DNA of 64,000 nt, from the IMG/VR virus record IMGVR_UViG_3300029957_000005, positions 1 to 64,000 of that record, one strand, 5' to 3'. Positions 6,694-63,945 of this stretch are shown here, in pieces. The translations under genes were made by a program, and so were the position numbers. The DNA comes from a virus. Taxonomy: Duplodnaviria > Heunggongvirae > Uroviricota > Caudoviricetes. The notes beneath the pieces were generated by a model. That model was not told the DNA's origin, made no database searches, and saw nothing but the letters and a program-made list of their open reading frames with translations. The first letter of the stretch is position 1. Each line of letters starts with the position of its first letter.

Positions 6694-6730
6694 GCCGACG
6701 GTTCTCACAAGGGCCGTCGGCATCTTTATT
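6694..6730 (+). terminator. rho-independent terminator after gene 45
   Basis: GCCGACGG-12nt loop-CCGTCGGC stem followed by ATCTTTATT. Confidence 0.5.
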
Positions 6731-6745
6731 GAACGAAAGCAAATC

Positions 6746-7708
6746 ATGAGCAAGATCACATCAAATCTAGACCAATGGATCTGGGTCGAGAAGTATCGTC
6801 CTCAGACTCTCGACGAATGCATCCTTCCTGAGAAGATCAAGAACGACCTCCTCGCCTTCAAGGACAAGGGCAACCTTCCGAATGCTATCTTCGCCGGAGG
6901 AGCCGGAACAGGCAAGACCACAGCGGCCAAGGCCTTCTGTAAGGAACTCGGATTGGACTACATGTTCCTCCAGGGCTCCGGCAAGGACCGCGGCATCGAC
7001 ACCATCAGAAACAAGATGGAGAAGTTTGCCACGGCAGTATCCTGGGATGACTCAGACCGCCGCAAGGTAGTCATCATCGACGAGGCTGAAAATCTGACCA
7101 CCGATGCTCAGCTCGCCCTCAGGTCCTTCATTGAAGAGAACGCAGACAACTGCGGCTTCATCTTCACCGCCAACTATCCAGGTCGCTTCATCGAGGCCCT
7201 GGTTTCCAGAATGCACGTGATCGAATTCAAGATCCCGAAGAACGAGAAGACCAAGCTGGCCATCCAGTTCCTCAAGCGTCTGGTCGGCATCCTCAAGGCA
7301 GAGGGCATCGAGGACTATTCCGAAGAAGTCCTCAAGACTCTTGTCCAGAAATACTTCCCGGACATGAGGCGCATCCTGAACGCCCTCCAGCACTACTCCT
7401 CGACCGGCAAGATCGATGCCGGCGTTCTCGACTTCATCAAGAGGGCAGACTGCGCTGAGCTCGTGGAGTTCATGAAGGACCGTGAGTGGAACAAGATGCG
7501 CAAGTGGATCGGCGAGAACGTGGACGATCCGGCCGAGGTCATCCTCGATCTCTATCAGAATTGTGCAAAGTACTTCAAGACTGCGTCCCTCCCACAGGCC
7601 ATCATTTACCTGAATGAGGCCCAGAAGGACCACGTCATGGCCATCGACAAGCAGCTATCCCTGGCTGCGAATCTGACTAACATGATGGGGAACCTGGAGT
7701 TCGAATGA
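6746..7708 (+). CDS. 44: clamp loader large subunit gp44 (AAA+)
   Basis: EKYRPQTLDECILPE, Walker A GGAGTGKTT, Walker B VVIIDEAE, FIFTANYP; collinear with T4 gp44. Confidence 0.9.
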   Translation: MSKITSNLDQWIWVEKYRPQTLDECILPEKIKNDLLAFKDKGNLPNAIFAGGAGTGKTTAAKAFCKELGLDYMFLQGSGKDRGIDTIRNKMEKFATAVSWDDSDRRKVVIIDEAENLTTDAQLALRSFIEENADNCGFIFTANYPGRFIEALVSRMHVIEFKIPKNEKTKLAIQFLKRLVGILKAEGIEDYSEEVLKTLVQKYFPDMRRILNALQHYSSTGKIDAGVLDFIKRADCAELVEFMKDREWNKMRKWIGENVDDPAEVILDLYQNCAKYFKTASLPQAIIYLNEAQKDHVMAIDKQLSLAANLTNMMGNLEFE

Positions 7709-8127
7709 CCACACCCTTCGACTGGATCAATAGCATCTGCACCGACAACAAGAATGCGGTCATCGAAGGAAAGCTGGACCCGAGAGAGTACAACTCATTC
7801 ATCGTGAATCGTGGGTTGTCTCTCTACGAGGACACCATCGCCTACGCTCAGCAGATGAACCTTAGACCGGACATTCCGGCCGAGGCTCAGTATCACTTTC
7901 TTCACGGCCTGGTGTCCAAGAAGAGACGCTTCTCCAAGTGGCCGAAGATGGACATAACCAAATTGGATAAGGACCTGTACGATGTACTGCAGGACAAATA
8001 TAGATACTCTCTGGAGAAGTGTATCGAAATTTCCAGGATCCTGTCCGATGAACAGAAGAAGACCCTGATCGATCTGCATATTGCTCCTGTGATGAAGAAG
8101 AGCAAGTCGAGGGATGGCACAGAATGA
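7705..8127 (+). CDS. 62: clamp loader small subunit gp62-like
   Basis: Position between 44 and regA, ATGA overlap with 44. Weak N-terminal similarity to gp62. Confidence 0.6.
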   Translation: MTTPFDWINSICTDNKNAVIEGKLDPREYNSFIVNRGLSLYEDTIAYAQQMNLRPDIPAEAQYHFLHGLVSKKRRFSKWPKMDITKLDKDLYDVLQDKYRYSLEKCIEISRILSDEQKKTLIDLHIAPVMKKSKSRDGTE

Positions 8128-8584
8128 ACAGGGAGATCTCATCATTGAGATCAGAGACTTCTCCGGCTCGGAAATCTATACTCTCGAAGCCATCCGCGTA
8201 ACAATCAAGCCAGAGAACTTCCTCAAGATCAAAGAGACGCTCCAGCGAATGGGGATCTACTCTGATCGAGACGGAACTCTCTGGCAGACTGCGCACATCC
8301 TCCACAAGCGAGGGTTCTACTACATCCTCCACTTCAAAGAACTATTTGCCCTCGACGGAAAGAGTGTAAACTTCTCCGCCGAGGACGAGATTCGTCGTAG
8401 CTACATCGTAGCCCTCCTCGAGAAGTGGAACCTTCTGACCATCTCGGATCCGAAGGTTCTTCTGGATGTTCGAAAGGACATCATCGAAGGCACAAAGCCG
8501 ACCAATCTGACAATCCTCCCACATACGTCAAGAACGAAGGTTCGACTCAGATCAAAATATGAGATCGGTGCCAAAAAAGTTTGA
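8114..8584 (+). CDS. regA: translational repressor RegA
   Basis: IRVTIKPENFLKIKETLQRMGIY...HILHKRGFYYILHFKE collinear with T4 RegA. ORF has about 30 aa N-terminal extension relative to T4 RegA and overlaps 62 by 14 nt. Confidence 0.8.
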   Translation: MAQNEQGDLIIEIRDFSGSEIYTLEAIRVTIKPENFLKIKETLQRMGIYSDRDGTLWQTAHILHKRGFYYILHFKELFALDGKSVNFSAEDEIRRSYIVALLEKWNLLTISDPKVLLDVRKDIIEGTKPTNLTILPHTSRTKVRLRSKYEIGAKKV

Positions 8585-8610
8585 ACATTTCGTCACTTCT
8601 TTGATATAAT
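8581..8610 (+). promoter_or_regulatory. sigma70-like promoter TTGAAC-N18-TATAAT upstream of DNA polymerase gene
   Basis: Hexamers read directly from sequence; 7 nt before ATG 8617 region. Confidence 0.3.
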
Positions 8611-8616
8611 GGGTAT

Positions 8617-11118
8617 ATGAGTTTTCAATACCTAAATTTCTTCCAGCATCGCTCGGCAATCTGCCTCAAGTACATTGACCACACCGGCAAAGTCGGTTAC
8701 AGAACGGTCAAGAACTATACTCCTCCGGTCTTCATCCCTGCAGTGAATGGGTCGTCAATAGACGCTCATTCTATCTTTGGGGTTCCATTGACTCGTCTGT
8801 CAAAGAAAGAGTCGATCTATGAGACTAAAAATCTCATCAAAGAGATCGAAGGCGACAACTTCAAAGCATTCGGCTTCTCCAAAGTCGACTTCTCATACGT
8901 CTATGACACCTTCAAGGAACAGCAGCCGGACAACTCCAAGGTCATGATTCATCTATACGACATCGAGACCACGGTCGACCACGGAAAGCCGGACCCGATA
9001 GCAGCCAAGGAGGAGATCAACATGATCACCGTCCACTGCTCCAAGAGGAAGAAGTTCTTCTGCTTCTACTCCCACTCTGAGTCGATCGATCTTCCGGAGT
9101 TCAAGGGCAAGGCTGTCCTCTATCACTGCGAGAACGAGGAAGAGCTCCTCCGTCGATATCTGGACTGGCACGCGGCAGACTATCCGGACATCCTGGCTGG
9201 TTGGTTCTCAGAAGGCTTCGACCTTCCGTACATCCGCAATCGCATGCTCAAGATCCTCGGCGAGGACTCGGTCAACAAGCTGTCTCCGTTCGGAGTGGTC
9301 AAGATCAAGGAAGGCTTCGATGCCTTCGGTCAGTACATGAACGTGGACATCAAAGGCATCTCCTGCCTGGACTACAAAAAGCTCTATGAGAAGTTCATCA
9401 AGGAACCTCGTGAGTCCTACTCCCTGGACTACATCGCCAAGGTCGAGATCAAGGAAGAGAAGCTCAAGCACGAGTCCGGCATTCCGGGCCACCTTCTCTA
9501 TAAGACCAACTTCGAGGACGCTCTTCGATACAACATCCAGGACGTGGCACTCCTAGTCAATCTGGAAGGCAAGAAGCAGATTCTCGAGCTGGCTATCACC
9601 ATGGCCTATCTGTCCTTCTGTAACTTCCAGGACGTGCTCTCGAACATGCGGATCATCGACATGATGTTCTACATGTACCTCAAGGACCGAGGCATCTACT
9701 TCGAGTGGAACTACAATGCTCCAGCCAGATCTCCATTCGAAGGAGCAGCGGTCAAGGACGTTATCCCAGGCAAGTACAAGTGGATCGCCACCTTCGACGT
9801 GACCTCCGAGTATCCATCCTTGATCATGGCCATGAACATCTCACCGGAGACCATCTACAAGAAGAAGGTCCTTCCGATCACGGTCAAGGAGATCCTGGCC
9901 AAGAAGGCAGCAAGAGACTTCGCTCTCGAGAATGGAATGTCTCTGGCAGCCAATGGAGCCATGTTCTCTCGGAACAAGGAAGGGTTCATGTCGGCAGTCG
10001 TCCGAGAACTCTTCGCCCTGAGGCAGAAGTACAAGAAGCTCAAGGTCGAGGCAGAGAAGATCCATGATGAGGATCTGACCAAGCTCAACGACATGAAGAA
10101 CTTGGCCTACAAGCTGATTCTGAACTCGATCTACGGCGTCACCGGAAATCCATACTTCAGGTTCTTCGATCTCCTGATCGCCGAAGGCATCACCCTCTCC
10201 GGACAGGCTCTCATCGGATGGGTGACCCAGGACGTGAACAGAGCCCTGAGCAAGCTCACTGGAATCGAGAGAGATCGAGCCGTTTCGTCCGACACCGATG
10301 CTGCCTACTTCGATCTCACGGACGTGGTCGAGATGAAGTTCGGCAAGGAGTATGACGACGAGGAGGCCCTCAAGTGGGTGGTCTGGTTCTCTGACACCAA
10401 GATCAACAAGCTGATCGAGGAGTCCATCTCTCGCTTCGCAGAGTATCTGAACGTTCGTGACCCATCGGTCTTGGACATGAAGCGAGAGAACATCGCCGAC
10501 TCTTCGATCTTCATGGCCAAGAAGCGTTATGTGATGTCGGTCAGGAACAACGAAGGCGCCGAATACAAGAGAGGCGAGAAGCTCAAGAAGACAGGACATG
10601 AGATCGTCAAGAGCATCACTCCTCAGTACGTCAAGGATGCCATGGCCAAGTCCTTTGATGCTCTCTTGTTCGGTACTCCTCAGGACTACTACAACTCGGT
10701 GAACGAGTTCAGGACGAGCTTCATGAAGGCCGAGCCGGATACGGTGGCCAAGACGTCCTCGGTGAATGGAATCCAGGAGTATCTCGAGAGAGATGGGACG
10801 ATCCGAAAGGGCTGTCCGAAGCATTCAAGAGCGGCCATCAACTTCAACAAATACATCGAGAAGCTAGGTCTGGTCAACGAATACCCGGCCATCAAGGAGG
10901 GAGACAAGATCAGGTTCATCGGACTCAAGGAGCCGAACCCTATCAAGTCCTACACAATCGGATGGATCGGGAGCATGCCCAAGCCTCTCGAGGCACTGAG
11001 ACCGTACTTCGATTATGAGGATCAGTTCGAAGCTATCTTCCACAAGTCGATGCAGTCAGCCGCCACACCGTGTGGAATACCACCAGAAACGGATACATGC
11101 GAAAATCCGTTTCTCTAA
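8617..11118 (+). CDS. 43: family B DNA polymerase gp43
   Basis: Exo I YDIETT, motif KLILNSIYGVTGN (KxxxNSxYG), SSDTDAAYF (motif C-like). 833 aa. Confidence 0.95.
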   Translation: MSFQYLNFFQHRSAICLKYIDHTGKVGYRTVKNYTPPVFIPAVNGSSIDAHSIFGVPLTRLSKKESIYETKNLIKEIEGDNFKAFGFSKVDFSYVYDTFKEQQPDNSKVMIHLYDIETTVDHGKPDPIAAKEEINMITVHCSKRKKFFCFYSHSESIDLPEFKGKAVLYHCENEEELLRRYLDWHAADYPDILAGWFSEGFDLPYIRNRMLKILGEDSVNKLSPFGVVKIKEGFDAFGQYMNVDIKGISCLDYKKLYEKFIKEPRESYSLDYIAKVEIKEEKLKHESGIPGHLLYKTNFEDALRYNIQDVALLVNLEGKKQILELAITMAYLSFCNFQDVLSNMRIIDMMFYMYLKDRGIYFEWNYNAPARSPFEGAAVKDVIPGKYKWIATFDVTSEYPSLIMAMNISPETIYKKKVLPITVKEILAKKAARDFALENGMSLAANGAMFSRNKEGFMSAVVRELFALRQKYKKLKVEAEKIHDEDLTKLNDMKNLAYKLILNSIYGVTGNPYFRFFDLLIAEGITLSGQALIGWVTQDVNRALSKLTGIERDRAVSSDTDAAYFDLTDVVEMKFGKEYDDEEALKWVVWFSDTKINKLIEESISRFAEYLNVRDPSVLDMKRENIADSSIFMAKKRYVMSVRNNEGAEYKRGEKLKKTGHEIVKSITPQYVKDAMAKSFDALLFGTPQDYYNSVNEFRTSFMKAEPDTVAKTSSVNGIQEYLERDGTIRKGCPKHSRAAINFNKYIEKLGLVNEYPAIKEGDKIRFIGLKEPNPIKSYTIGWIGSMPKPLEALRPYFDYEDQFEAIFHKSMQSAATPCGIPPETDTCENPFL

Positions 11119-17864: not shown

Positions 17865-18563
17865 ATGAAACATTTGATATACGCCATCGGAGACATCCAC
17901 GGATGCGACTCCACTCTCGCAGCGATGTTCCAGAAGATCCAGGACCACATGAACGCCAACCCGGCCGACAAGCGGACTGTGGTCTTCCTCGGAGACTATG
18001 TTGACCGTGGACCACGTTCGGCCCAGGTCGTCGATCGAGTCAGACAGTCCATCGAGATCTTTGGACGCATCGGCATCGACGTGATCCCGCTCAAGGGCAA
18101 TCACGAAGACATGATGATCGATGCTCTCGAGAACCCTCTGAATCCACACCACTGGCTTCAGAACGGTGGTGGAGCGACTATGAACTCCTATCCGGAAGGG
18201 ATCGTCTGGTCCGAACACGTTCGCTTTCTCAAGGACCTGAAGCTGATCCATCAGATCGGCCGCTTCGTCTTCGTCCACGCCGGTATCGAGCCACTCGTTC
18301 CGATCGAAGAGCAGAGCCCATACATCTTCCTCTGGGAGCGTGATTGGGTCAAGTACAACGGTCCGTTCGACGAGGAAGAGAAGATGTTCGTGGTCCATGG
18401 TCACACTCCTGGGGAGGACTACGTTCTCCTTGACCATCAGCTGAACATCGACTCCGCTTGTGTCTTCGGAGAGAAGTACAAGCTCACCTGTGTTGTCATC
18501 GACGCCGACCAAGAAGACAACAACTTCGAATACCTCCAAGTGAAGAATATTGACCGAGCTTAA
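17865..18563 (+). CDS. PPP-family Ser/Thr protein phosphatase (lambda PPase / ApaH-like metallophosphoesterase)
   Basis: GDIHG, GDYVDRG, GNHE, HGH motifs. Confidence 0.8.
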   Translation: MKHLIYAIGDIHGCDSTLAAMFQKIQDHMNANPADKRTVVFLGDYVDRGPRSAQVVDRVRQSIEIFGRIGIDVIPLKGNHEDMMIDALENPLNPHHWLQNGGGATMNSYPEGIVWSEHVRFLKDLKLIHQIGRFVFVHAGIEPLVPIEEQSPYIFLWERDWVKYNGPFDEEEKMFVVHGHTPGEDYVLLDHQLNIDSACVFGEKYKLTCVVIDADQEDNNFEYLQVKNIDRA

Positions 18564-21596: not shown

Positions 21597-21832
21597 GCAA
21601 GATAATCATGACTTGGGGACCGGTCTTTATGACCGGAGAGGCCCCGGAAGAAATCTACCACGCAGTCAAGGCAGTAGAGTTCAGAAACACAGTAGAAGGT
21701 GAAGGCATTAAGCCGACCAGAACTCTGGAAGAAATCTTGCTCGAAAAGCATCCGGAAGCCCAGATCTTCTACATCCAAGAAATCCGACCAATAGACCAGA
21801 ACATCAAGGTGATTCGTTATGTCGTCGAATGA
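21593..21832 (+). CDS. hypothetical protein
   Basis: ATGA overlap; codon bias. Confidence 0.45.
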   Translation: MSKIIMTWGPVFMTGEAPEEIYHAVKAVEFRNTVEGEGIKPTRTLEEILLEKHPEAQIFYIQEIRPIDQNIKVIRYVVE

Positions 21833-23115: not shown

Positions 23116-24046
23116 GGACTTCAGGACTCAGCTCTCCTACGAAGTCTCTCAGATACAAGATCCGAACCTCCTCTACAAGACCTACTATGCCATCACAAGT
23201 CCCAGGCTGGAAACTTCAGTCCGGGACTTGTTCGACTCTCGGAAGCTCACAATAGAGTCCACGGACTTCTCGTACTTCGTCAATGAGATACTTCCGACCA
23301 ATGGCTACTCCGTCGAGGACAACAAGGCCCTTCTGAAGAAGATGACGGATGGTGATCTGATCTCCTCCGAGTACATCGCCCAGACTCACGACAAGGTTCT
23401 GAACCTCCGGGATCTGGTCGATCCGATGCTCACTACTCCGACCCTGAACAAGATGGTCTCCCATGTGGCTGATTCTCTGTCTTCGTCCTCGGTCGGAAAG
23501 GGAGAGTTCGCCTTCGTTCTTTTGACTGGTGGATCGACCAAGGCCAAGAAGGGTGGAGATCTCCGGATCGGAGAGATGGATGTAGAGATCAAGGCCAAGG
23601 GATGCAAGCTCGCTTCTCAGTCCTCACACATCTCCCTGATGTCCGTCAAGTCCGCCATCCAGGAGTATCTGGGCCCGAGAGTGGCCATCAAGCCTCTGAC
23701 GCCGATGCAGCTCAGGAAGCACTATCTCCCGGAGCTCGGATCCATGCACGAGCTCATGCTCTTTCTTCAGTTCGTATTCCAGAGGACCATGTTCAGGGAG
23801 ACGAACTTCGACTGGTTTCTCAAATGTGAATCGATCGAAGATTTTTTTGAGAAACTTGCGGTTCACGAGTTTACGTACTACCAGAACTGTGATAAGTTCG
23901 ACCGAATGCTCTTCGTCAATCCTGACAATCTGAACGTCTACAACACGGATTCGATGGACGAGGACAAACTCAAGAACTTCAGTCTGACCAGATCCTTCTC
24001 GTTCGCGTCCGAACGAATTCAAACCAACAATTGGACCCTTCGCTGA
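23102..24046 (+). CDS. hypothetical protein, possible PD-(D/E)xK nuclease fold
   Basis: GGDLRIGEMDVEIKAKG resembles a D...ExK core; otherwise no motifs. Confidence 0.45.
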   Translation: MQNFEDFRTQLSYEVSQIQDPNLLYKTYYAITSPRLETSVRDLFDSRKLTIESTDFSYFVNEILPTNGYSVEDNKALLKKMTDGDLISSEYIAQTHDKVLNLRDLVDPMLTTPTLNKMVSHVADSLSSSSVGKGEFAFVLLTGGSTKAKKGGDLRIGEMDVEIKAKGCKLASQSSHISLMSVKSAIQEYLGPRVAIKPLTPMQLRKHYLPELGSMHELMLFLQFVFQRTMFRETNFDWFLKCESIEDFFEKLAVHEFTYYQNCDKFDRMLFVNPDNLNVYNTDSMDEDKLKNFSLTRSFSFASERIQTNNWTLR

Positions 24047-30948: not shown

Positions 30949-31407
30949 ATGGCTGCTCGTCTCTACATTGCCCTGCGCTCGGACCTACTCGGAATGTCTC
31001 CGGGTCGTGCAGCAGCTCAAGCTTCCCACGGGACTTCTACCTTCCACGAGAAGTTCAATTCTCTGCCCGAGACCAGCTTGACGTACAGCTTGAAGCGAGC
31101 TGTCAACGAGTGGAAGGAAGAAGCCGAAGGGTTCGGGACGGCGATCGTCCTCAAAGCGACCTACGGAGAGATCCTGGATCTCCAGGACCAGGCGGTCTTG
31201 GCTCGAGCTGAGAACTCCGATACTTCGAAGGACAATTTCTATTTTCGTCGGATCATCGATCCTCAGTACTTCTACAAGGGTCCTGGTGAACTCTTCGAGG
31301 CCAAGGACGTCCTGACCGGAGCAGTTGTCTTCATTCCGGACGAATCTCGAGAAGTCGAAGAAGTCGGTCGACTCTTCGAAAAGATCTACGCTCTCCCGCT
31401 TTTCTGA
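30949..31407 (+). CDS. PTH2-family peptidyl-tRNA hydrolase
   Basis: N-terminus RLYIALRSDLLGMSPGRAAAQASHGT matches the PTH2 core (vvRtDLkMgkGKiaAQcsHa). Confidence 0.6.
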   Translation: MAARLYIALRSDLLGMSPGRAAAQASHGTSTFHEKFNSLPETSLTYSLKRAVNEWKEEAEGFGTAIVLKATYGEILDLQDQAVLARAENSDTSKDNFYFRRIIDPQYFYKGPGELFEAKDVLTGAVVFIPDESREVEEVGRLFEKIYALPLF

Positions 31408-36550: not shown

Positions 36551-37243
36551 ATGCTCTCGTACTTCAATCGGGTCGGAGACAATCCGATCACTGAATCCCT
36601 GGTGGCCTCGATAGGCCTGATGGTCATCATCTACGGTGTCTCGGCCCTGATGGGTGTGGACATCTCCTGGAACCCGATCGAGATCTCCGCGGTCTGGACC
36701 TCCTTCGTCTGCACCTACCTCTGCGTCGTCCAGAGCCGCTTCAACTATGTGGTCGGCGTGATCACCACAGCCCTCTACTCCTATCTCTTCTACCAGTCCC
36801 ATCTGGTCGGTTCGATGGTCCTGAACCTTTATCTCATCCCGACCCTGATCTATGGATGGTTCATCTGGGGACCTGACAACAATGCCAAGCCGGTCCAATG
36901 GGTCAAGTGGAAGTACATCCCGGTCTACGTCCTTGCTACCTTCGCCACCTATCTCGGCGCCCTCTGGATCGTCCAATACTTCGGCGGAAGCATGGCGCCT
37001 CTTGACTCCTGGATCCTGATCGGCACGATCCTTGCTCAGTACCTCCTGGACCGAAAGAAACTCCAAACCTGGTTCATCTGGGTCGCCGTGAATGTGGTCT
37101 CGATCTACGTCTACTACAACTCCGGCCTCTACCTGGTCGCCATCCAATACATCTTCTTCCTCCTGAACACCGTCTTCGGATGGTACATGTGGAACAAGTC
37201 CATGCAGCCTCAGCCTGCATTTGGTCGACTCCCAGCCGAATAA
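36551..37243 (+). CDS. pnuC: PnuC-family nicotinamide riboside/NMN transporter
   Basis: Polytopic membrane protein. YGWFIWG, QTWFIWVAVNVVSI and FGWYMWN match PnuC conserved W-rich motifs (E. coli YGWYAW, ENWLLWVIINVISV). Confidence 0.65.
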   Translation: MLSYFNRVGDNPITESLVASIGLMVIIYGVSALMGVDISWNPIEISAVWTSFVCTYLCVVQSRFNYVVGVITTALYSYLFYQSHLVGSMVLNLYLIPTLIYGWFIWGPDNNAKPVQWVKWKYIPVYVLATFATYLGALWIVQYFGGSMAPLDSWILIGTILAQYLLDRKKLQTWFIWVAVNVVSIYVYYNSGLYLVAIQYIFFLLNTVFGWYMWNKSMQPQPAFGRLPAE

Positions 37244-37247
37244 GCTG

Positions 37248-37276
37248 TTTACATTCCTCTGAATCCTGTGTAAGTT
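37248..37276 (+). promoter_or_regulatory. sigma70-like promoter TTTACA-N17-TAAGTT embedded in 10-bp palindrome CCTCTGAATC/GATTCAGAGG
   Basis: Palindrome arms at 37256-37265 and 37289-37298 flank the -10 and +1. Confidence 0.4.
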
Positions 37277-37307
37277 CGACTTATATGAGATTCAGAGGAA
37301 TTCCGAA

Positions 37308-37556
37308 ATGCCACGCAATATCGAAATTGTCTCTTACGATCTGACCTTCTTCAAAGGTGAAGAGACCAAGGTCCTGTCCTTCTCGACCTACGTGGATCGT
37401 GATGTCTATGATGATCCGAAAGAAGCGATCATCGATCACATCTCCGACAAGATCACCCTCATCCAGGGAGATGCCAACATCCCAGGGTTCCTCCCCAAGT
37501 TCAAGACCCTGAGGATCTGGAGATCTCACAAGCCCTCCGACCTCGATTTGAAATAG
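37308..37556 (+). CDS. hypothetical protein
   Basis: ORF track. Confidence 0.5.
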   Translation: MPRNIEIVSYDLTFFKGEETKVLSFSTYVDRDVYDDPKEAIIDHISDKITLIQGDANIPGFLPKFKTLRIWRSHKPSDLDLK

Positions 37557-37563
37557 GACAAGC

Positions 37564-38616
37564 ATGCGCGGACTTCTAATGATGACTGCCCTCCTTCCCA
37601 CGGAGGGTCACAGAAACTTTATCGAGTTCGCTCGGAACTTCATGGAGATCAAAGGTGGTCAGTTGACCGTCATGGTCAACACCAGAGGATTTGAGCCGAT
37701 CTCAGGTGGTCTTCGCCTTCGTTGGCTGACCGAAGAATTCAAAGGTCCGGTGGACAACGGTCAGATCGACATCGTAGTCACTGACATCGACACCGCTCCT
37801 CAGAACCCGGAAGATCATCCGGACTTCTGGAACTGGTGGGCTCAAACCACCTGGGACTGGACCGGAAGCAAGAACTACGACTACTTCTTCGCCTCGGAAG
37901 CGTACGGCCTGGAGATGTCCAAGCATCTCGGCCAAGACTGTCGCTTCGTTCCATACGACATCGCCAGGGACATCCTCCCGATCTCAGGAACAGTGGTTCG
38001 TCGCGGTGGTCCGGAGTTCTGGGATCAGATCATTCGTCCAGCTCGGAATCACCTCGGTCAGAAGCTCGGATCCTTCTGCATGTTCGGTCAGGAGTCCGTC
38101 GGCAAGACCACCATCGCCAAGGCCCTAGCCAAGCAGAACAGTGCAGCATCCTTCCAGCCCGAATGGGCCCGCCCTTATCTGGAGACCGTCGGCCCGGATC
38201 TGAACCCGAATGTCATGGACATCATCTTCGCTGGTCAACTCGCCCAGATGAAGGCCACGGCCGGACAGACCATGGTCACCTATCGGGACACGGACCTCCT
38301 GAGCACCATCGGATATCAGAGACTCGCCGGGTGGAAGGTTCCGTCCTATTGGAACGATCAGTTCGACTCTTTCAGGTCCTCCCACTATTTCCTCCTCCCG
38401 GATGATGTCCCATTCGAACCGGATCCTCTTCGCTATGGTGGAGACAAGAGGGAGACGGACACGAAGTTCTGGTATGATCTCCTGATAGAATACAGCTGCA
38501 ACTTCACCGTCGTCCCCAGAGGGACCCTGGCGTCCAAGATCGACTACATCTTCGAGAAGTCAGCCGGTCTCGTCCACAAGAACTGGGAACCCATTCGAGA
38601 ATTCAAGAGGACCTGA
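37564..38616 (+). CDS. NadR-like protein with P-loop kinase domain (ribosylnicotinamide kinase-like; N-terminal adenylyltransferase-like region)
   Basis: Walker A FGQESVGKTTIAKALA matches the NadR/NRK motif GxESxGKS[T]. Adjacent to pnuC as in bacterial pnuC-nadR operons. N-terminal region is divergent. Confidence 0.55.
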   Translation: MRGLLMMTALLPTEGHRNFIEFARNFMEIKGGQLTVMVNTRGFEPISGGLRLRWLTEEFKGPVDNGQIDIVVTDIDTAPQNPEDHPDFWNWWAQTTWDWTGSKNYDYFFASEAYGLEMSKHLGQDCRFVPYDIARDILPISGTVVRRGGPEFWDQIIRPARNHLGQKLGSFCMFGQESVGKTTIAKALAKQNSAASFQPEWARPYLETVGPDLNPNVMDIIFAGQLAQMKATAGQTMVTYRDTDLLSTIGYQRLAGWKVPSYWNDQFDSFRSSHYFLLPDDVPFEPDPLRYGGDKRETDTKFWYDLLIEYSCNFTVVPRGTLASKIDYIFEKSAGLVHKNWEPIREFKRT

Positions 38617-38960
38617 TGTTCAATTTCAAACGCTCGGATTGGTTCAAGAAAGGCCGCAAGAAGGTCGAACCTGAGCCCGACTACTCCGGGATCGAATCTC
38701 CGATGAAGTATATGGTCGTTCCGAAGAGTCCTCATCGCTGGGATGTCTATCAGATCAATCGAAAGGACGCCGAGTTCTTGACCAAGAAGAAGGGTCGTGA
38801 GCCCTCACTCGAGGAATGGACCTTCGTCATCTACAGCACCTCCGAGAACGCAGCCAAGGGCTACATCTACGAGAAGCTGGAGCAAGATCGCCGAGATGTC
38901 TTCGAGATGCACAGGGACCTCGCCTTTCGTCGAGATAATCAGCCGTACGAAGTCGAATAA
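38616..38960 (+). CDS. hypothetical protein
   Basis: ATGA overlap. Confidence 0.5.
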   Translation: MFNFKRSDWFKKGRKKVEPEPDYSGIESPMKYMVVPKSPHRWDVYQINRKDAEFLTKKKGREPSLEEWTFVIYSTSENAAKGYIYEKLEQDRRDVFEMHRDLAFRRDNQPYEVE

Positions 38961-38989
38961 ATACAAGCGGTACGAGAAAGGAACAAATC

Positions 38990-39412
38990 ATGAATCTCCG
39001 TCCGATAATCCTGGGAGCAGTCTTTGCACTGGCTACCCTGTTCGCCGTGAATGCAAGTGCCCACACCTACGACGGAGGTCCTGATGCTCCCGTCCAGATC
39101 CAAGAAAATCAGCCGATCACTCTCCAGCAGCTCCTCGACGGGACCCTCAAGGGCGTCGCCGACAAGATGAACGTCACCGCCTCCGAACCCAAGAAGGAGA
39201 CGATGACGATCTACGCCAACGTCATCAATCAGATCTTCGGTGTCGGCGTCCTCAACGGAACGATCGATGCCTATGCGATCGAAGGCTCCGACGGCAATCT
39301 CCGAGTTCGTCTCATCAAGGGCGACCAGAAGGCCGAACAGACCGTGAACTTCGGCAAGGTTCAAACGGACGCCTTGTTCTTCATGGAGACCTCCCCGACC
39401 TTCGGAAAATAA
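38990..39412 (+). CDS. secreted hypothetical protein (signal peptide)
   Basis: MNLRPIILGAVFALATLFAVNASA|HTY. AATAAATA (late-promoter-like) about 28 nt upstream. Confidence 0.55.
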   Translation: MNLRPIILGAVFALATLFAVNASAHTYDGGPDAPVQIQENQPITLQQLLDGTLKGVADKMNVTASEPKKETMTIYANVINQIFGVGVLNGTIDAYAIEGSDGNLRVRLIKGDQKAEQTVNFGKVQTDALFFMETSPTFGK

Positions 39413-39415
39413 GAG

Positions 39416-39444
39416 TTTACAACTCACGAAGGATGTAGTAGACT
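39416..39444 (+). promoter_or_regulatory. sigma70-like promoter TTTACA-N17-TAGACT followed by 10-bp palindrome CTGTCTCCGT/ACGGAGACAG
   Basis: Palindrome 39443-39472 overlaps the -10/+1 and contains the SD GGAGA. Confidence 0.45.
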
Positions 39445-39475
39445 GTCTCCGTTGTCAAACAAACGGAGACAGAAC

Positions 39476-39694
39476 ATGGAAATGTCCGAAGCCAAGATGA
39501 ACCACTTCAAAGAAGTCGCTCGTCGCGCTCGTCAAGCTGAAGAGTTCATCGTCGCCGAAGCCAAGAAGATGGGGATCGAGCTGTCTGCCGAATCCGCTGC
39601 CATCTTCCGGAACATCGTCACCGAGATCTACGGTGACAACATGAAGCCGGTTCCCGTCGATCCCGACGAGAATATCGGATCCACAACCCCCTAA
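39476..39694 (+). CDS. hypothetical protein
   Basis: ATG after the palindrome; the ORF-track start at 39452 is a TTG inside the palindrome. Confidence 0.45.
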   Translation: MEMSEAKMNHFKEVARRARQAEEFIVAEAKKMGIELSAESAAIFRNIVTEIYGDNMKPVPVDPDENIGSTTP

Positions 39695-39702
39695 GGAATT
39701 CA

Positions 39703-39903
39703 ATGGAATACGACATAGAATCTGAAGTCCACATCTACGACGGTCGAGGGGAGAAGCTCTCGATCGTCTCAGACCCGGACAGTCTTGGTCTTGTAGTGAT
39801 CAAGGGCAATGACTACTTCGGAGGAGAGATCCAGTTCGACAAAGCCATGCTCGGCGCTGTGATCGAAGGCCTTCAGAAATTCAAGTCGTCCAATGACCTC
39901 TAA
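39703..39903 (+). CDS. hypothetical protein
   Basis: ORF track. Confidence 0.4.
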   Translation: MEYDIESEVHIYDGRGEKLSIVSDPDSLGLVVIKGNDYFGGEIQFDKAMLGAVIEGLQKFKSSNDL

Positions 39904-39913
39904 GGAGAAGAAG

Positions 39914-40429
39914 ATGCCCAAGAAAGTCGTGAAAGTCGCCGAGAACCACGCAGACGAAGCGTTCTACAACGGTGGACCAGCTCCTGCTCCCGCTCCAAAG
40001 GACTACGGTCCAGGACCTCACACAGCCGTGGATGCTGTGGTGATCTTCTCAGACGACTTCGAGGACCACATCCTCGTGATCACCCGCAAGGACGGGACAA
40101 CTGCTCTCCCAGGTGGATTCGTGGATCCGGAAGATGATTCTCTTCTCGCTGCGATCCTTCGTGAGGTCAAGGAAGAGACGGGTCTGGATCTCCTTCAGTA
40201 CTGGAGACAGGAGCCGATCGAACTTCCTTCGATGACCGACAAGAAGCGTGATCCACGAAGCTGGGTCATCTCCCATCCGTTCTTCTTCAAGGTTCGTTCG
40301 AGGGTTCTACCCAAGGTCACCGGAATGGACGATGCCATCGGTGCCAGGTGGGTGGTGGACAATTTGATCGATCACCAGAACTGGTTCCTCGATCATCGTC
40401 AGATCATCAGGAACGCTTTCGAAGCCTGA
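39914..40429 (+). CDS. Nudix hydrolase
   Basis: Nudix box GGFVDPEDDSLLAAILREVKEETGL. AAGGAG RBS 7 nt upstream of ATG 39914. Confidence 0.75.
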   Translation: MPKKVVKVAENHADEAFYNGGPAPAPAPKDYGPGPHTAVDAVVIFSDDFEDHILVITRKDGTTALPGGFVDPEDDSLLAAILREVKEETGLDLLQYWRQEPIELPSMTDKKRDPRSWVISHPFFFKVRSRVLPKVTGMDDAIGARWVVDNLIDHQNWFLDHRQIIRNAFEA

Positions 40430-48113: not shown

Positions 48114-48356
48114 ATGAGCGAAAACTCCTCCGCGCTCCGTGCTTACGTCGAGAGAATCGAACGTGAGAACGAAGCAAAGAAAGACATCCAAGAAGGCATC
48201 AAGGAAATCTTCGCCGAGCTCAAGGGCAACGGCTATGACCCCAAGATCGTCCGACTCCTGATTCGTCGCCGGGCCAAGGACCGTGCGGAACTCGAAGAAG
48301 AAGAGTCCCTCCTGGAAATGTACGAAAAAGCAGTCGCAATCGGAATGGGTGCATAA
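48114..48356 (+). CDS. hypothetical helical protein
   Basis: RBS AAGGGAAA. Confidence 0.5.
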   Translation: MSENSSALRAYVERIERENEAKKDIQEGIKEIFAELKGNGYDPKIVRLLIRRRAKDRAELEEEESLLEMYEKAVAIGMGA

Positions 48357-49695: not shown

Positions 49696-49806
49696 ATGCA
49701 CAATCCCTACGCAAAGTCCCTTTCGTCCAAGCTCTTCCAGAAGAAAGCCATTCGCGCCAAGAAGGGTCGTGGTTCCTACACCCGTCGCGACAAGCACGCA
49801 AAGTGA
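49696..49806 (+). CDS. small highly basic protein (36 aa), not in ORF track
   Basis: MHNPYAKSLSSKLFQKKAIRAKKGRGSYTRRDKHAK with C-ending codons. Ends in AAGTGA overlapping the next gene. Confidence 0.35.
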   Translation: MHNPYAKSLSSKLFQKKAIRAKKGRGSYTRRDKHAK

Positions 49807-49817
49807 GAATTGATCAC

Positions 49818-51155
49818 ATGATCGTCGATATGTGCGACATCCCCTACGGGTGGACCTGCGGTTTTCCTCGTCCGATCTTCGATACGGACAAAGCTTCTCC
49901 GGAAGCGATGAGGGACTATTTCCGACGTCACGGCGTCGTCGAAGAGCCTCTCCATCTCCGTTACTTCCACTCGGAGATCAATGTCACAGATCTCAAGGAG
50001 AACTATCGGATCGCCATCCCAGGTTTCGTCTATGAAATCCTTGCCGTCCTGAACCAGTGCGGTCATCAGGCCTATGCGGTCGGTGGTGCGGTTCGTGACT
50101 CCTTCCTGAATCGTCCAATCAAGGACTGGGACGTTTCCACCTCCGCCACCCCTCAGCAGGTGACCAACATCTTTGAGAACCTGATGGTTCCTGTTCATCC
50201 GACCGGGATCGCCCATGGGACGGTCACCGTGGTCTTCGGTGGTGAGAACATCGAGGTGACGACCTTCCGGACCGATGTGAACACCGATGGTCGTCATGCC
50301 GAGGTCGCCTTCTCGGACAACATCGTCGAGGACGCCTATCGTCGGGATTTGACGATCAATGCTCTCTATGCCGATCGGGACGGTCGAGTCTTCGATCCGA
50401 CCACCGAAGGTCTCTATGACCTGATGAACCAGAAGATCAGAATGGTCGGTTCCCCGAGGGATCGGATCAACGAGGACACCCTTCGCATCCTGAGAGCGGT
50501 TCGGTTCGCCGGTCAGCTGGACTTCCAGATCGAAGCCCACACAGCCTACGTGATTCACAACTGTGAAGCCGACGTCCTTAGGAACCTGAGTCTGGAGAGG
50601 ATCATCTCCGAGCTGGAGCGCATCCGTCCATCCCACGTCAAGGTCATTGCCAAATTCCTTGCTCCGGTGTTCGGGGTCCAGCATCTCCACCTGCCTTACG
50701 AGGAGCACATCCTTGAAGAGCTTTCGAAGATGCCGTGGTTCTATCTCTACATCTTCGCCAAGGTCCCTGGTCAGTGGTTCACCGCCAATCCTGTGATCTC
50801 CAAGGACGTCAAGAGAGCAGTCAAGCTCCTCCTGAACATGTCCTATGGAGTCCCGATGGACTCCTGGGACGCAGCTCAGCGCTTCGGCCTGGAGGAGATT
50901 CGTCTCGTCCAGAAGTTCTATCTCCTGAAGCATCCGAGTGGAGAGGTTCCGAAGATGCCTTTCTTCCACACTCTACCGGTAGCGCTTGTCAAGAACCCAG
51001 TCGGATCCGCCGACTTCATAGAGGAATTCAAGGGCCCTGAGCTCGGGAAGATCCTCGATATTGCCAACACTCTTCACGCCGAATTCAGGTTCAGCCTGAA
51101 CAAAGAAGAATTGTCAAAACTCGCAAGGATAAAGTATAATCACTTCTATGGATAA
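49818..51155 (+). CDS. tRNA nucleotidyltransferase (CCA-adding enzyme, class II head domain)
   Basis: AVGGAVRDSFL...DWDVST (GGxVRD/DxD) and RRDLTINALY motifs. Confidence 0.8.
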   Translation: MIVDMCDIPYGWTCGFPRPIFDTDKASPEAMRDYFRRHGVVEEPLHLRYFHSEINVTDLKENYRIAIPGFVYEILAVLNQCGHQAYAVGGAVRDSFLNRPIKDWDVSTSATPQQVTNIFENLMVPVHPTGIAHGTVTVVFGGENIEVTTFRTDVNTDGRHAEVAFSDNIVEDAYRRDLTINALYADRDGRVFDPTTEGLYDLMNQKIRMVGSPRDRINEDTLRILRAVRFAGQLDFQIEAHTAYVIHNCEADVLRNLSLERIISELERIRPSHVKVIAKFLAPVFGVQHLHLPYEEHILEELSKMPWFYLYIFAKVPGQWFTANPVISKDVKRAVKLLLNMSYGVPMDSWDAAQRFGLEEIRLVQKFYLLKHPSGEVPKMPFFHTLPVALVKNPVGSADFIEEFKGPELGKILDIANTLHAEFRFSLNKEELSKLARIKYNHFYG

Positions 51156-51753
51156 ATTCACATGCGCGCCGAGAGTCGGCGATTGGATGCAAACCTATAC
51201 CGGCCGTAAGTTCTGGCCCCTGGACCCCCGAGTAGAAGATTTCGACATCCTGGACATAGCTCACGCTTTGTCCTTGACCTGTCGCTTCAACGGCCACTGC
51301 ATCGAGTTCTATTCGGTGGCCGAACACTCATGTCACATCTACGACAAGGCTCCGTACCCGAAGAAGAAGCAGGCGCTTCTTCATGATGCTCCGGAAGGCT
51401 ACATTTCGGACATCGTCACTCCTCTCAAGAGGTACATGCCGGAGTTCCGGGAGATCGAGGACAAGATATTCAGGTCCTTGGCTCGTCGATACGAAGTCAG
51501 CGCCGAGATCGATCCTATTGTCCACATTCTGGACAAGTCCATCGTTCGAGACGAATTGATCAACATGAGGAATGTGCCGGCCGAATGGAACATTCCTGCT
51601 CGAGGCATCGGAGTCAAAATTCAGCTCTGGTCTCCGAAGAGGGCCGAATACGAGTTCCTCAAGAGAGCCAAGGCCTGTGGCATCGACACCGGTCCTATCA
51701 CTCACCCACTCATTCAGAAGGTCTCGTCCTTCTTCAACCGAAAAGGAAACTGA
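51148..51753 (+). CDS. HD-domain phosphohydrolase (YfbR-like 5'-deoxynucleotidase family)
   Basis: H...HD...D arrangement: SVAEHSCH, LLHDAPE, D residues downstream. Confidence 0.65.
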   Translation: MDKFTCAPRVGDWMQTYTGRKFWPLDPRVEDFDILDIAHALSLTCRFNGHCIEFYSVAEHSCHIYDKAPYPKKKQALLHDAPEGYISDIVTPLKRYMPEFREIEDKIFRSLARRYEVSAEIDPIVHILDKSIVRDELINMRNVPAEWNIPARGIGVKIQLWSPKRAEYEFLKRAKACGIDTGPITHPLIQKVSSFFNRKGN

Positions 51754-62898: not shown

Positions 62899-63945
62899 AT
62901 GGAAATTGATAGAGCACTAGCGTCCATTCGACGCATCGCAGGCATTCGCCCGATCGAGGGAGCAGACGTCATCGTCTGTGCAACCGTGGACGGATGGGAA
63001 CTCGTCACCCAGAAGAGCAACGGCTTCAAGACCGGGGATCTGGTCGTCTACTTCGAGATCGACTCGGTCCTCCCGGAGAAGGAGCCTTTTGAGTTCCTCC
63101 GTGAGCGCTGCTACGTCTCTGCAGAACGTTCGGTCAACGGAGCAGGCTTCCGTCTGAGGACCATCAAGCTCCGTGGACAGGTTTCACAAGGCCTGATCCT
63201 TCCGATCTCTGCTCTGGATCATCTGATCTACGATGGGGACCACACCTCCTACGAGGAAGGAACGGACCTCACCGAGATCTTGGGAGTGGTCAAGTACGAG
63301 AAGCCTCTGTCGGCCAATCTGGCCGGTGTGGCTCGAGGCAACTTCCCGACCTTCATCCCGAAGACTGATGAGACCAGAGTTCAGAATGCCCGTCGCATTC
63401 TCGAGCAGTCCTGGGATCACACCTTCGAGGTCTCGATCAAGCTGGATGGGTCGTCATGCACGATCTATGAACACGACGGCAAGTTCGGCGTCTGTTCCAG
63501 GAATCTGGATCTCGAAGAGACCGAAGGCAACTCCTTCTGGCAGGTGGCTCGCAAGTACGATCTCCCGAACAAGCTCGGAGGTCTCGGTCGCTTCAAGTCC
63601 ATCGCAATCCAAGGAGAGCTGATGGGTCCTGGAGTCCAGGGCAATCCGGAGGACCTGAAGGAACTCGATCTCTTCGTCTTCAACATCTATGACATCGCAC
63701 GTCGTGGGTACTTCAACCCACACGATCGTGGAGTCATCTGCAAGGTCCTCGGCCTGAAGTCCGTTCCGGTTCTGGAGTACAGGACCTTTGACACCTTCAC
63801 CATCGCCGACTATGTGGCCTATGCCGATGGTCCATCCCTGAACGAAAAGAAGAACCGTGAAGGTCTGGTCTTCAAGAGCCAGAGGGATCCATCGATCTCC
63901 TTCAAGGCAATCTCAAACAAGTGGTTGCTCAAGAACGATGGGTAA
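62899..63945 (+). CDS. ATP-dependent RNA ligase (Rnl-type covalent nucleotidyltransferase)
   Basis: Motif I SIKLDGSS (KxDGS), motif III IAIQGELMG, motif IV REGLVFKS, motif V K-x-K near C-terminus. Confidence 0.6.
   Translation: MEIDRALASIRRIAGIRPIEGADVIVCATVDGWELVTQKSNGFKTGDLVVYFEIDSVLPEKEPFEFLRERCYVSAERSVNGAGFRLRTIKLRGQVSQGLILPISALDHLIYDGDHTSYEEGTDLTEILGVVKYEKPLSANLAGVARGNFPTFIPKTDETRVQNARRILEQSWDHTFEVSIKLDGSSCTIYEHDGKFGVCSRNLDLEETEGNSFWQVARKYDLPNKLGGLGRFKSIAIQGELMGPGVQGNPEDLKELDLFVFNIYDIARRGYFNPHDRGVICKVLGLKSVPVLEYRTFDTFTIADYVAYADGPSLNEKKNREGLVFKSQRDPSISFKAISNKWLLKNDG

Follow-up and report, generated by a model that had tools for sequence, protein, structure and literature searches.

A predicted CCA-adding nucleotidyltransferase and a neighbouring YfdR-family HD protein in a T4-like phage contig: probably inherited neighbours rather than a split tRNA repair enzyme

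Introduction

Does a phage gene for a tRNA nucleotidyltransferase that is directly followed by a gene for an HD-domain hydrolase represent a CCA-adding enzyme split in two? This question is raised by a locus between positions 49,696 and 51,753 of the first 64,000 nt (hereafter, the window) of the metagenomic viral contig IMGVR_UViG_3300029957_000005; the contig comprises 163,358 bp. A first-pass annotation had proposed that the nucleotidyltransferase (NTase) is a stand-alone head, that the separate HD protein corresponds to the HD domain which bacterial CCA enzymes carry as a fusion, and that both belong to a dispersed toolkit for the healing and sealing of damaged tRNAs. We examined homologies, motifs, gene overlaps and gene neighbourhoods, and from these we infer the enzymatic activities and biological roles considered below. 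The analysis corrects the tempting but unsupported account of a split CCA/HD enzyme.

The nucleotidyltransferase

The NTase is 450 aa long when read from the GTG codon and 445 aa when read from the downstream ATG, which is the start used both in the public gene call (P0001) and in the first-pass annotation (Table 1). All of the motifs named in the first-pass annotation (GGAVRD, DWD and RRDLTINALY) were located, and the head of the protein matched PF01743 with 114.6 bits (cutoff 23; E = 4.9e-33). The NTase also matched phrog_2244, annotated as 'tRNA nucleotidyltransferase' (E = 5.5e-52). In our alignment A2, the invariant columns include G89, G90, R93, D103 and D105 of motif A, R151, D153, D157, G158 and R159 of the flexible loop together with the RRD of motif B, and E219, D220 and R223 of motif D. 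The nucleotide template in this last motif is EDTLR (aa 224-228 of the NTase). An EDxxR or DDxxR template and a flexible loop typify the enzymes that add CCA or A; the loop is required for the addition of A, and enzymes that add only CC are devoid of it (PMC11784652).

The head motifs are also found in class II poly(A) polymerases (PAP), and a poly(A) polymerase-like identity was the possibility that the first-pass annotation had set against its own proposal. The scores point the other way. The CCA model NF009814 was the top NCBIfam match, with 213 bits (cutoff 290; profile positions 11-205, that is, head and neck only), and the two PcnB models remained below their cutoffs (TIGR01942, 154 vs. 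305.65 bits; NF008634, 116 vs. 702 bits). The comparison with solved structures gave the same order, since the CCA enzymes 6ibp (1e-41) and 1miv (9e-35) scored better than the E. coli PAP 3aqm (3e-28). These results support the prediction that the NTase is of the CCA type rather than of the PcnB type.

The alignment also revealed that the NTase is colinear from end to end with the ~380-aa CCA enzymes of Rhodobacterales, including the C-terminal tail motif P..DL..GP.LG. Its predicted architecture comprises head, neck, body and tail, preceded by an extension of ~75 aa, and the description of the protein as a stand-alone head is not supported. The body and the tail are divergent (PF12627, 14.2 bits vs. 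a cutoff of 22). The Pfam search of the window NTase gave no match to the HD domain PF01966, and the Rhodobacterales enzymes likewise carry PF01743 and PF12627 only. By contrast, PF01966 is present in the fused CCA enzyme P0008 and in the NTase of the viral contig L171, described below. Given that the closest cellular CCA enzymes are themselves devoid of an HD domain, this condition would be the ancestral state of the NTase lineage and not the product of a split, so there would have been nothing to separate. From these comparisons, the NTase is most likely a full-length enzyme of the CCA-adding type and of alphaproteobacterial descent, with a predicted activity.

The N-terminal extension (residues 1-75; positions 49803-50030) reads MIVDMCDIPYGW..FPRP..DYFRRHGV and showed no domain match. 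P0002, the closest relative, is the only one to keep it; P0003, P0004 and the cellular CCA enzymes do not have it.

The HD protein

As the first-pass annotation had stated, the HD gene immediately follows the NTase gene; its ATG, at position 51148, precedes the NTase stop codon (51153-51155), and the two reading frames overlap by 8 nt. The product, of 201 aa, matched phrog_318, 'deoxyribonucleoside 5' monophosphate phosphatase', with E = 4e-52. The set of metal-binding and catalytic residues H..HD..E..D..D (H60, H79, D80, E83, D88 and D129) is invariant in 26 diverse homologues. The HDxxE...D..P.K block aligns to the HDASE..D..P.K of YfbR, and the chain of the YfbR E72A mutant scored lower.

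The label of phrog_318 traces to YfdR, the HD protein of the E. coli cryptic prophage CPS-53, whose RefSeq name is '5'-deoxynucleotidase'. In a BLASTP alignment of 103 aa, the HD protein of the window and YfdR shared 39% identity (E = 2e-23), and a profile built from the 26 homologues aligned with YfdR over 168 columns with a probability of 99.9% (hhalign). The closest solved structure is that of Atu1052 (PDB 2gz4), followed by DatZ, HDDC2, OxsA and YfbR; apart from Atu1052, these proteins are small-molecule nucleotide hydrolases. The match to the YfbR-like family PF12917 was below the gathering score (18.3 vs. 25.9 bits). However, E. coli YfdR also falls just short of this cutoff (24.3 bits), and therefore PF12917 under-covers the YfdR branch.

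In contrast, no profile similarity was detected between the HD protein and the fused-HD CCA enzyme P0008 (hhalign probability of 11.7% over 26 columns). These comparisons place the HD protein in the YfdR/YfbR branch, apart from the branch of the CCA-enzyme HD domains, and argue that it is not a detached domain for tRNA 3'-end healing, in disagreement with the original proposal. The first-pass annotation had itself considered a clustering with dNTPases or 5'-nucleotidases as the contrary outcome, and membership of the YfdR/YfbR branch corresponds to it.

The YfdR/Atu1052 family, with >590 matches in IMG/VR, is common in small temperate phages that have no NTase, where it stands beside replication genes. 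A C-terminal tail of ~25 aa is common only to the HD protein of the window and its closest relative. The last part of the NTase gene contains a sigma-70-like promoter sequence (51111-51140, forward strand; TTGTCA-18-TATAAT, 11/12 positions matched), the end of which lies 8 nt upstream of the ATG of the HD gene. In the promoter and terminator scan of this region, the counts were no higher than the shuffled expectation.

Conservation of the NTase-HD adjacency

To collect related loci we used alignment-based scans of IMG/VR, as single-protein scans retrieved none or one distant match; a nucleotide search of the GenBank phages gave no nucleotide-level match to the region. The only close relatives, the metagenomic contigs L005-L011, all carry the NTase-HD pair, with identities of 40-59% for the NTase and 62-73% for the HD protein. 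These contigs are colinear with the window, gene for gene, over ~15 kb, and for this reason the presence of the pair in them reflects shared ancestry and does not constitute independent evidence.

We then considered the neighbourhoods of the best 80 of the >575 IMG/VR matches for each protein. None of the 80 viral loci with an HD homologue had an NTase within ±8 kb, and a YfdR-like HD gene was near the NTase in only one of the 80 viral NTase loci; these samples are redundant, with many NTase loci from gut phages, and the counts are a strong indication rather than a census. Likewise, the three cultured phages whose NTases are most similar to that of the window had no such HD gene within ±4 kb. 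The single positive locus (L171; IMGVR_UViG_3300037067_007264, positions 6697-9350 of a 145-kb viral contig) has a YfdR-like HD gene ~670 bp upstream of the NTase and no other gene in common with the window. Its NTase bears a fused PF01966 HD domain of its own, and hence the YfdR-like protein there is no substitute for a missing HD domain.

In annotated phages, the genes of this HD family occupy DNA and nucleotide contexts. They adjoin genes for a DNA polymerase and a dUTPase in Tunturi_4, a DNA repair exonuclease and a NinI-like phosphatase in phage 16-3, an exonuclease and a DNA methyltransferase in Pseudomonas phage pAN (with a YfdQ-family gene nearby), and a replication protein in Ochrobactrum phage vB_OspM_OC. 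The evidence indicates that the NTase-HD adjacency is the inherited gene order of one phage lineage and not a functional unit, and the functional linkage suggested by the first-pass annotation is not borne out by a wider distribution, as a single syntenic lineage accounts for the adjacency.

An ArfA-like gene upstream of the NTase

Directly upstream of the NTase lies a gene that was absent from the first-pass annotation, which encodes an ArfA-like alternative ribosome-rescue factor of 36 aa (Table 1). The match to PF03889 reached 30.6 bits (cutoff 25.5) over profile positions 18-44, and the basic C-terminal segment K-G-x-G-S-Y is present; all five phage sequences of the alignment read KKGRGSY here. 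A GGAG Shine-Dalgarno sequence is located 7 nt upstream of the ATG, and the TGA stop codon (49804-49806) overlaps the GTG of the NTase at 49803. The relatives L005-L011 have orthologues with identities of 70-78%, and arfA is conserved in all four lineages. In three of these four, a gene of ~90 aa is found between arfA and the NTase gene, and the window has no counterpart of this spacer. The idea that the spacer had been fused into the N-terminus of the window NTase was rejected, since the two sequences showed no similarity.

A phage ArfA has been annotated previously, as gp30 of pelagiphage HTVC027P (PMC12753301). Among 50,697 GenBank phage records, the sole tblastn match to the ArfA of the window was in Erythrobacter phage vB_EliS-L02 (L176; OL955261.1, 144107-144208), an unannotated ArfA-like open reading frame (ORF) with 59% identity and no annotated NTase adjoining it. 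A scan of IMG/VR with a degenerate pattern confirmed nothing, which probably reflects the limits of this method for a peptide of 36 aa.

An ArfA coupled to a CCA-adding enzyme would make functional sense as a small translation-maintenance pair. Their translational coupling, although only mildly notable, suggests that ribosome rescue and the upkeep of tRNA 3' ends are encoded together in some T4-like phages with alphaproteobacterial hosts.

Table 1. Features of the NTase-HD locus and of other RNA-related genes. Positions refer to the window unless another contig is named; +, forward strand.
Feature	Position	Strand	Support or sequence
ArfA-like alternative ribosome-rescue factor, 36 aa	49696..49806	+	PF03889; MHNPYAKSLSSKLFQKKAIRAKKGRGSYTRRDKHAK
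Class II tRNA nucleotidyltransferase, predicted CCA-adding type	49803 (GTG)/49818 (ATG)..51155	+	PF01743, NF009814, phrog_2244, PDB, full-length alignment
NTase motif A, GGAVRD (50082-50099), then DWD (50124-50132), catalytic carboxylates	50082..50132	+	alignment A2
NTase flexible-loop region and motif B, RRDLTINALY (50340-50369)	50265..50369	+	alignment A2; loop region FRTDVNTDGRHAEVAFS
NTase motif D, nucleotide template EDxxR	50472..50507	+	alignment A2; EDTLRILRAVRF
YfdR-family HD phosphohydrolase (predicted), 201 aa	51148..51753	+	phrog_318, YfdR homology, invariant residues
HD metal/catalytic block	51313-51330 and 51376-51411	+	SVAEH and LLHDAPEGYISD
Intervening gene, ~90 aa, no assigned function	L005 7721-7996; L008 7732-8004; L011 1963-2235
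Metallophosphoesterase (Metallophos), lambda-phosphatase/CthPnkp-type, NinI-like	17865-18563	+	PDB 1g5b 1e-12, 4j6o 2e-11
RNase_T/DEDDh exonuclease	18550		PHROG 'DNA polymerase exonuclease subunit'
Metallophos_2-type phosphoesterase	21819		phrog_547 E = 4e-47; Pfam score below cutoff
Lineage-restricted ORFan, KKDG motif only	24031		six lineage-restricted homologues
PTH2, weak partial match	30949		27.4 bits vs. cutoff 23
RNA ligase, Rnl5/Naegleria gruberi (NgrRnl) type, full length	62899-63945	+	PDB 5cot E = 1.4e-76, PF21189, PF09414

Other genes of the window

Searches of the ORFs against Pfam and PHROG indicated that the window contains a T4-like replication and auxiliary region. The replication genes encode SbcCD-like nuclease subunits, the sliding clamp, the clamp loader, a family-B DNA polymerase, UvsX and a DnaB-like helicase, and those of nucleotide metabolism encode a MazG-like pyrophosphohydrolase, ThyX, PnuC/NadR and NUDIX proteins. 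The last of these form a nicotinamide adenine dinucleotide (NAD) salvage cluster (36551-40429, forward strand) composed of a PnuC-like nicotinamide mononucleotide transporter, a NadR-like nicotinamide-nucleotide adenylyltransferase and a NUDIX hydrolase. In phage vB_OspM_OC, PnuC and NadR adjoin the YfdR-like HD gene. Upstream of arfA, an ORF of 80 aa (48114-48356, forward strand) is 95% identical to a gene of L005 for which a GapR DNA-binding domain (PF10073) was precomputed. This GapR-like ORF, as well as the relationship of the NTase and the HD protein to alphaproteobacterial proteins, suggests that the host is probably an alphaproteobacterium.

The statement that this phage encodes several RNA- and translation-related enzymes was borne out by the domain searches, with differences among the genes cited, which are spread over >45 kb among the replication genes. 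The metallophosphoesterase at 17865 and the DEDDh exonuclease at 18550 were both recovered as described. The best PDB matches of the former are the lambda phosphatase (1g5b) and the phosphatase domain of Clostridium thermocellum Pnkp (4j6o), and a 2',3'-cyclic phosphodiesterase activity is documented for enzymes of this type (PMC2190708). Because of this activity, the product of 17865 would a priori be a stronger candidate than the HD protein for the healing of RNA 3' ends, with the caveat that NinI-like phosphatases are common in phages. In phage 16-3, it is a phosphatase of this kind that directly adjoins the YfdR-like HD gene.

The remaining assignments held in part. The second metallophosphoesterase, at 21819, is backed by its PHROG family and not by Pfam; the PTH2 peptidyl-tRNA hydrolase at 30949 passes the profile cutoff as a partial match, and the PDB search gave no PTH2 match for it. 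The gene at 62899 does encode an RNA ligase, with an N-terminal OB domain (PHA02142) followed by PF09414, which is neither Rnl1 nor Rnl2 and belongs to the Rnl5/NgrRnl type. Ligases of this type seal nicks in duplex RNA-containing substrates rather than breaks in anticodon loops. In other contigs (L178, L179), a conserved ORF of 95 aa follows the RNA ligase gene. A search with the ligase for sequence beyond the window retrieved short contigs only. The protein noted for a KxDG motif at 24046 (ORF 24031) does contain KKDG, and ORF 24827 had been described as a Pol-beta nucleotidyltransferase; for both, database searches gave lineage-restricted homologues only, 2 and 6 in number, with no Pfam, PHROG or PDB match. 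An RNA-ligase/RlaP-like pair formed by the products of ORFs 24031 and 24827 would be a speculative reading. In the AlphaFold2 (AF2) model of ORF 24827, which is of low confidence (predicted local distance difference test, pLDDT, of 56.5), the Pol-beta fold is supported by the N-terminal ~118 aa only.

Large phages are known to combine RNA ligases, phosphoesterases, a CCA-adding enzyme and PTH2 against defences that target translation (Iyer et al. 2021, PMC7824862, section 3.4.9). The idea of a dispersed toolkit is therefore plausible and already published for such phages, and nothing that we found shows the genes of this window acting together.

Interpretation of the locus

We consider it probable that ArfA and the NTase keep translation running during infection, and that the HD protein, a YfdR-family enzyme, works independently of them, its target being the (deoxy)nucleotide pool or possibly the host DnaA. 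The three genes, which lie close together in one orientation, would have auxiliary roles and belong to the early or middle region of the T4-like phage genome. ArfA would release the ribosomes stalled on non-stop mRNAs, and the NTase would provide the tRNAs of the host, and perhaps those of the phage, with a rebuilt or new 3' CCA. The most likely substrates of the HD protein are small (deoxy)nucleotides, which it would dephosphorylate in the manner of a 5'-deoxynucleotidase, shaping the pools of deoxynucleoside mono- and triphosphates; alternatively, it may bind the host DnaA, as YfdR does.

Several observations weigh against this interpretation. ARAGORN detected zero tRNA genes in the 64-kb window. 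The NTase stayed below every NCBIfam equivalog cutoff and diverges in its body and tail, and its CCA specificity is therefore predicted rather than proven. The spacer gene seen in three of the four lineages implies that the coupling of arfA with the NTase gene is not strictly conserved. Regarding the HD protein, Atu1052, its closest solved relative, is without an assigned function, and YfdR has a low affinity for nucleotides and binds DnaA (PMC4776307). Finally, the overlapping NTase-HD pair is kept in four diverged relatives, with NTase identity down to 40%, and the non-syntenic L171 also has an NTase and a YfdR-like HD gene within 1 kb; these two facts leave room for a functional link between the two proteins.

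Part of this evidence would also suit an NTase that tails RNA, either like a poly(A) polymerase or by adding A only, and that might, for example, target host transcripts for degradation. All the head motifs are common to class II PAPs and CCA enzymes, and the EDxxR template and the loop are shared by A-adding and CCA-adding enzymes; moreover, the matches to the CCA models are confined to the head and neck, the PF12627 score is deficient, the ~75-aa extension is additional, the window is devoid of tRNA genes, and some homologues are labelled 'poly(A) polymerase'. These labels, however, follow the name of the Pfam domain. The higher scores of the CCA models and structures, as well as the full-length colinearity with alphaproteobacterial CCA enzymes, tail motif included, make a tailing enzyme quite unlikely. 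The retention of the overlapping pair, the co-occurrence in L171 and the lack of an HD domain in the window NTase are what would be expected if the HD protein were the trans-acting equivalent of the fused domain, stripping 2',3'-cyclic or 3'-phosphates from nuclease-damaged tRNAs so that the NTase could then rebuild the CCA within a heal-and-seal toolkit. HD-like phosphatases have indeed been named as occasional healers of RNA ends in jumbo phages (PMC7824862), and an action of the HD protein on tRNA ends, if true, would be a new counter-defence activity. Nevertheless, we regard this arrangement as improbable, given the scarcity of co-occurrence in the sampled loci (0/80 and 1/80), the HD domain already present in the L171 NTase, the naturally HD-less cellular relatives of the window NTase, and the abundance of this HD family next to replication genes in small temperate phages that have no NTase.

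The HD protein could instead be mainly a host-takeover factor, which would bind DnaA and damp the initiation of host chromosome replication with little or no catalysis. The full-length homology with YfdR, the DnaA binding of the latter together with its low affinity for nucleotides, and the YfdQ-family gene near the HD homologue of Pseudomonas phage pAN are in agreement with such a role. On the other hand, catalysis has likely been retained, because the full metal and catalytic residue set is invariant across the 26 homologues; in addition, the HD gene of the window had no yfdQ, yfdS or yfdT partner beside it, and the effect of YfdR required its overexpression together with YfdQ and YfdS or YfdT. 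We therefore consider a main role of this kind unlikely. Very unlikely, in our opinion, is a three-gene translation-rescue operon, in which a recruited HD protein would clear blocked tRNA 3' ends (for example, a 2',3'-cyclic phosphate left by a toxin, or a 3'-pyrophosphate from toxSAS/CapRel-type defences), the NTase would rebuild the CCA, and ArfA would free the ribosomes. If true, it would provide an RNA-end substrate for the large and enigmatic YfdR/Atu1052 family. The interpretation that we favour, a translation-maintenance pair next to an independent YfdR-family enzyme, makes the NTase, the HD protein and ArfA divergent additions to already known categories.

Comparison with known systems

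The NTases of Roseobacter phage DSS3P8 (gp136), Caulobacter phage CcrColossus (gp289) and Agrobacterium phage Atu_ph07 share with that of the window the PF01743 head, motifs A-E, the EDxxR template, the flexible loop and a ~380-aa core without an HD domain that is colinear up to P..DL..GP.LG, with identities of 31-38% over ~80% of the length. The window NTase differs from this group by its N-terminal extension, common only to P0002, by its divergent body and tail, and by its neighbours, given that ArfA precedes it and a YfdR-like HD gene follows it, neither of which is found nearby in these phages. The multifunctional CCA-adding and repair enzyme of E. coli is homologous in the head and neck (a partial match to NF008137, 76 bits vs. 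a cutoff of 451), but it carries a fused HD domain with phosphatase and 2',3'-cyclic phosphodiesterase activities, which the window NTase does not have. With respect to the YfdR/Atu1052-type proteins, the HD protein of the window is unusual in that its gene sits beside an NTase gene and not in a yfdQRST-like or replication module.

The analogy with the heal-and-seal system of T4 (Pnkp/Rnl1), drawn in the first-pass annotation, does not extend to its components. The ligase is of the Rnl5 type, and no polynucleotide kinase (pnk) was found among the ~40 window ORFs scanned, the window covering 64 kb of the 163-kb contig. A closer parallel is offered by the repertoire described for large phages by Iyer et al. 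(2021; PMC7824862), as the window likewise brings together a predicted CCA-adding enzyme, calcineurin-like phosphoesterases, an ATP-dependent RNA ligase and a weakly matching PTH2. ArfA, which is not mentioned in that survey, is an additional element of the set encoded in this window.

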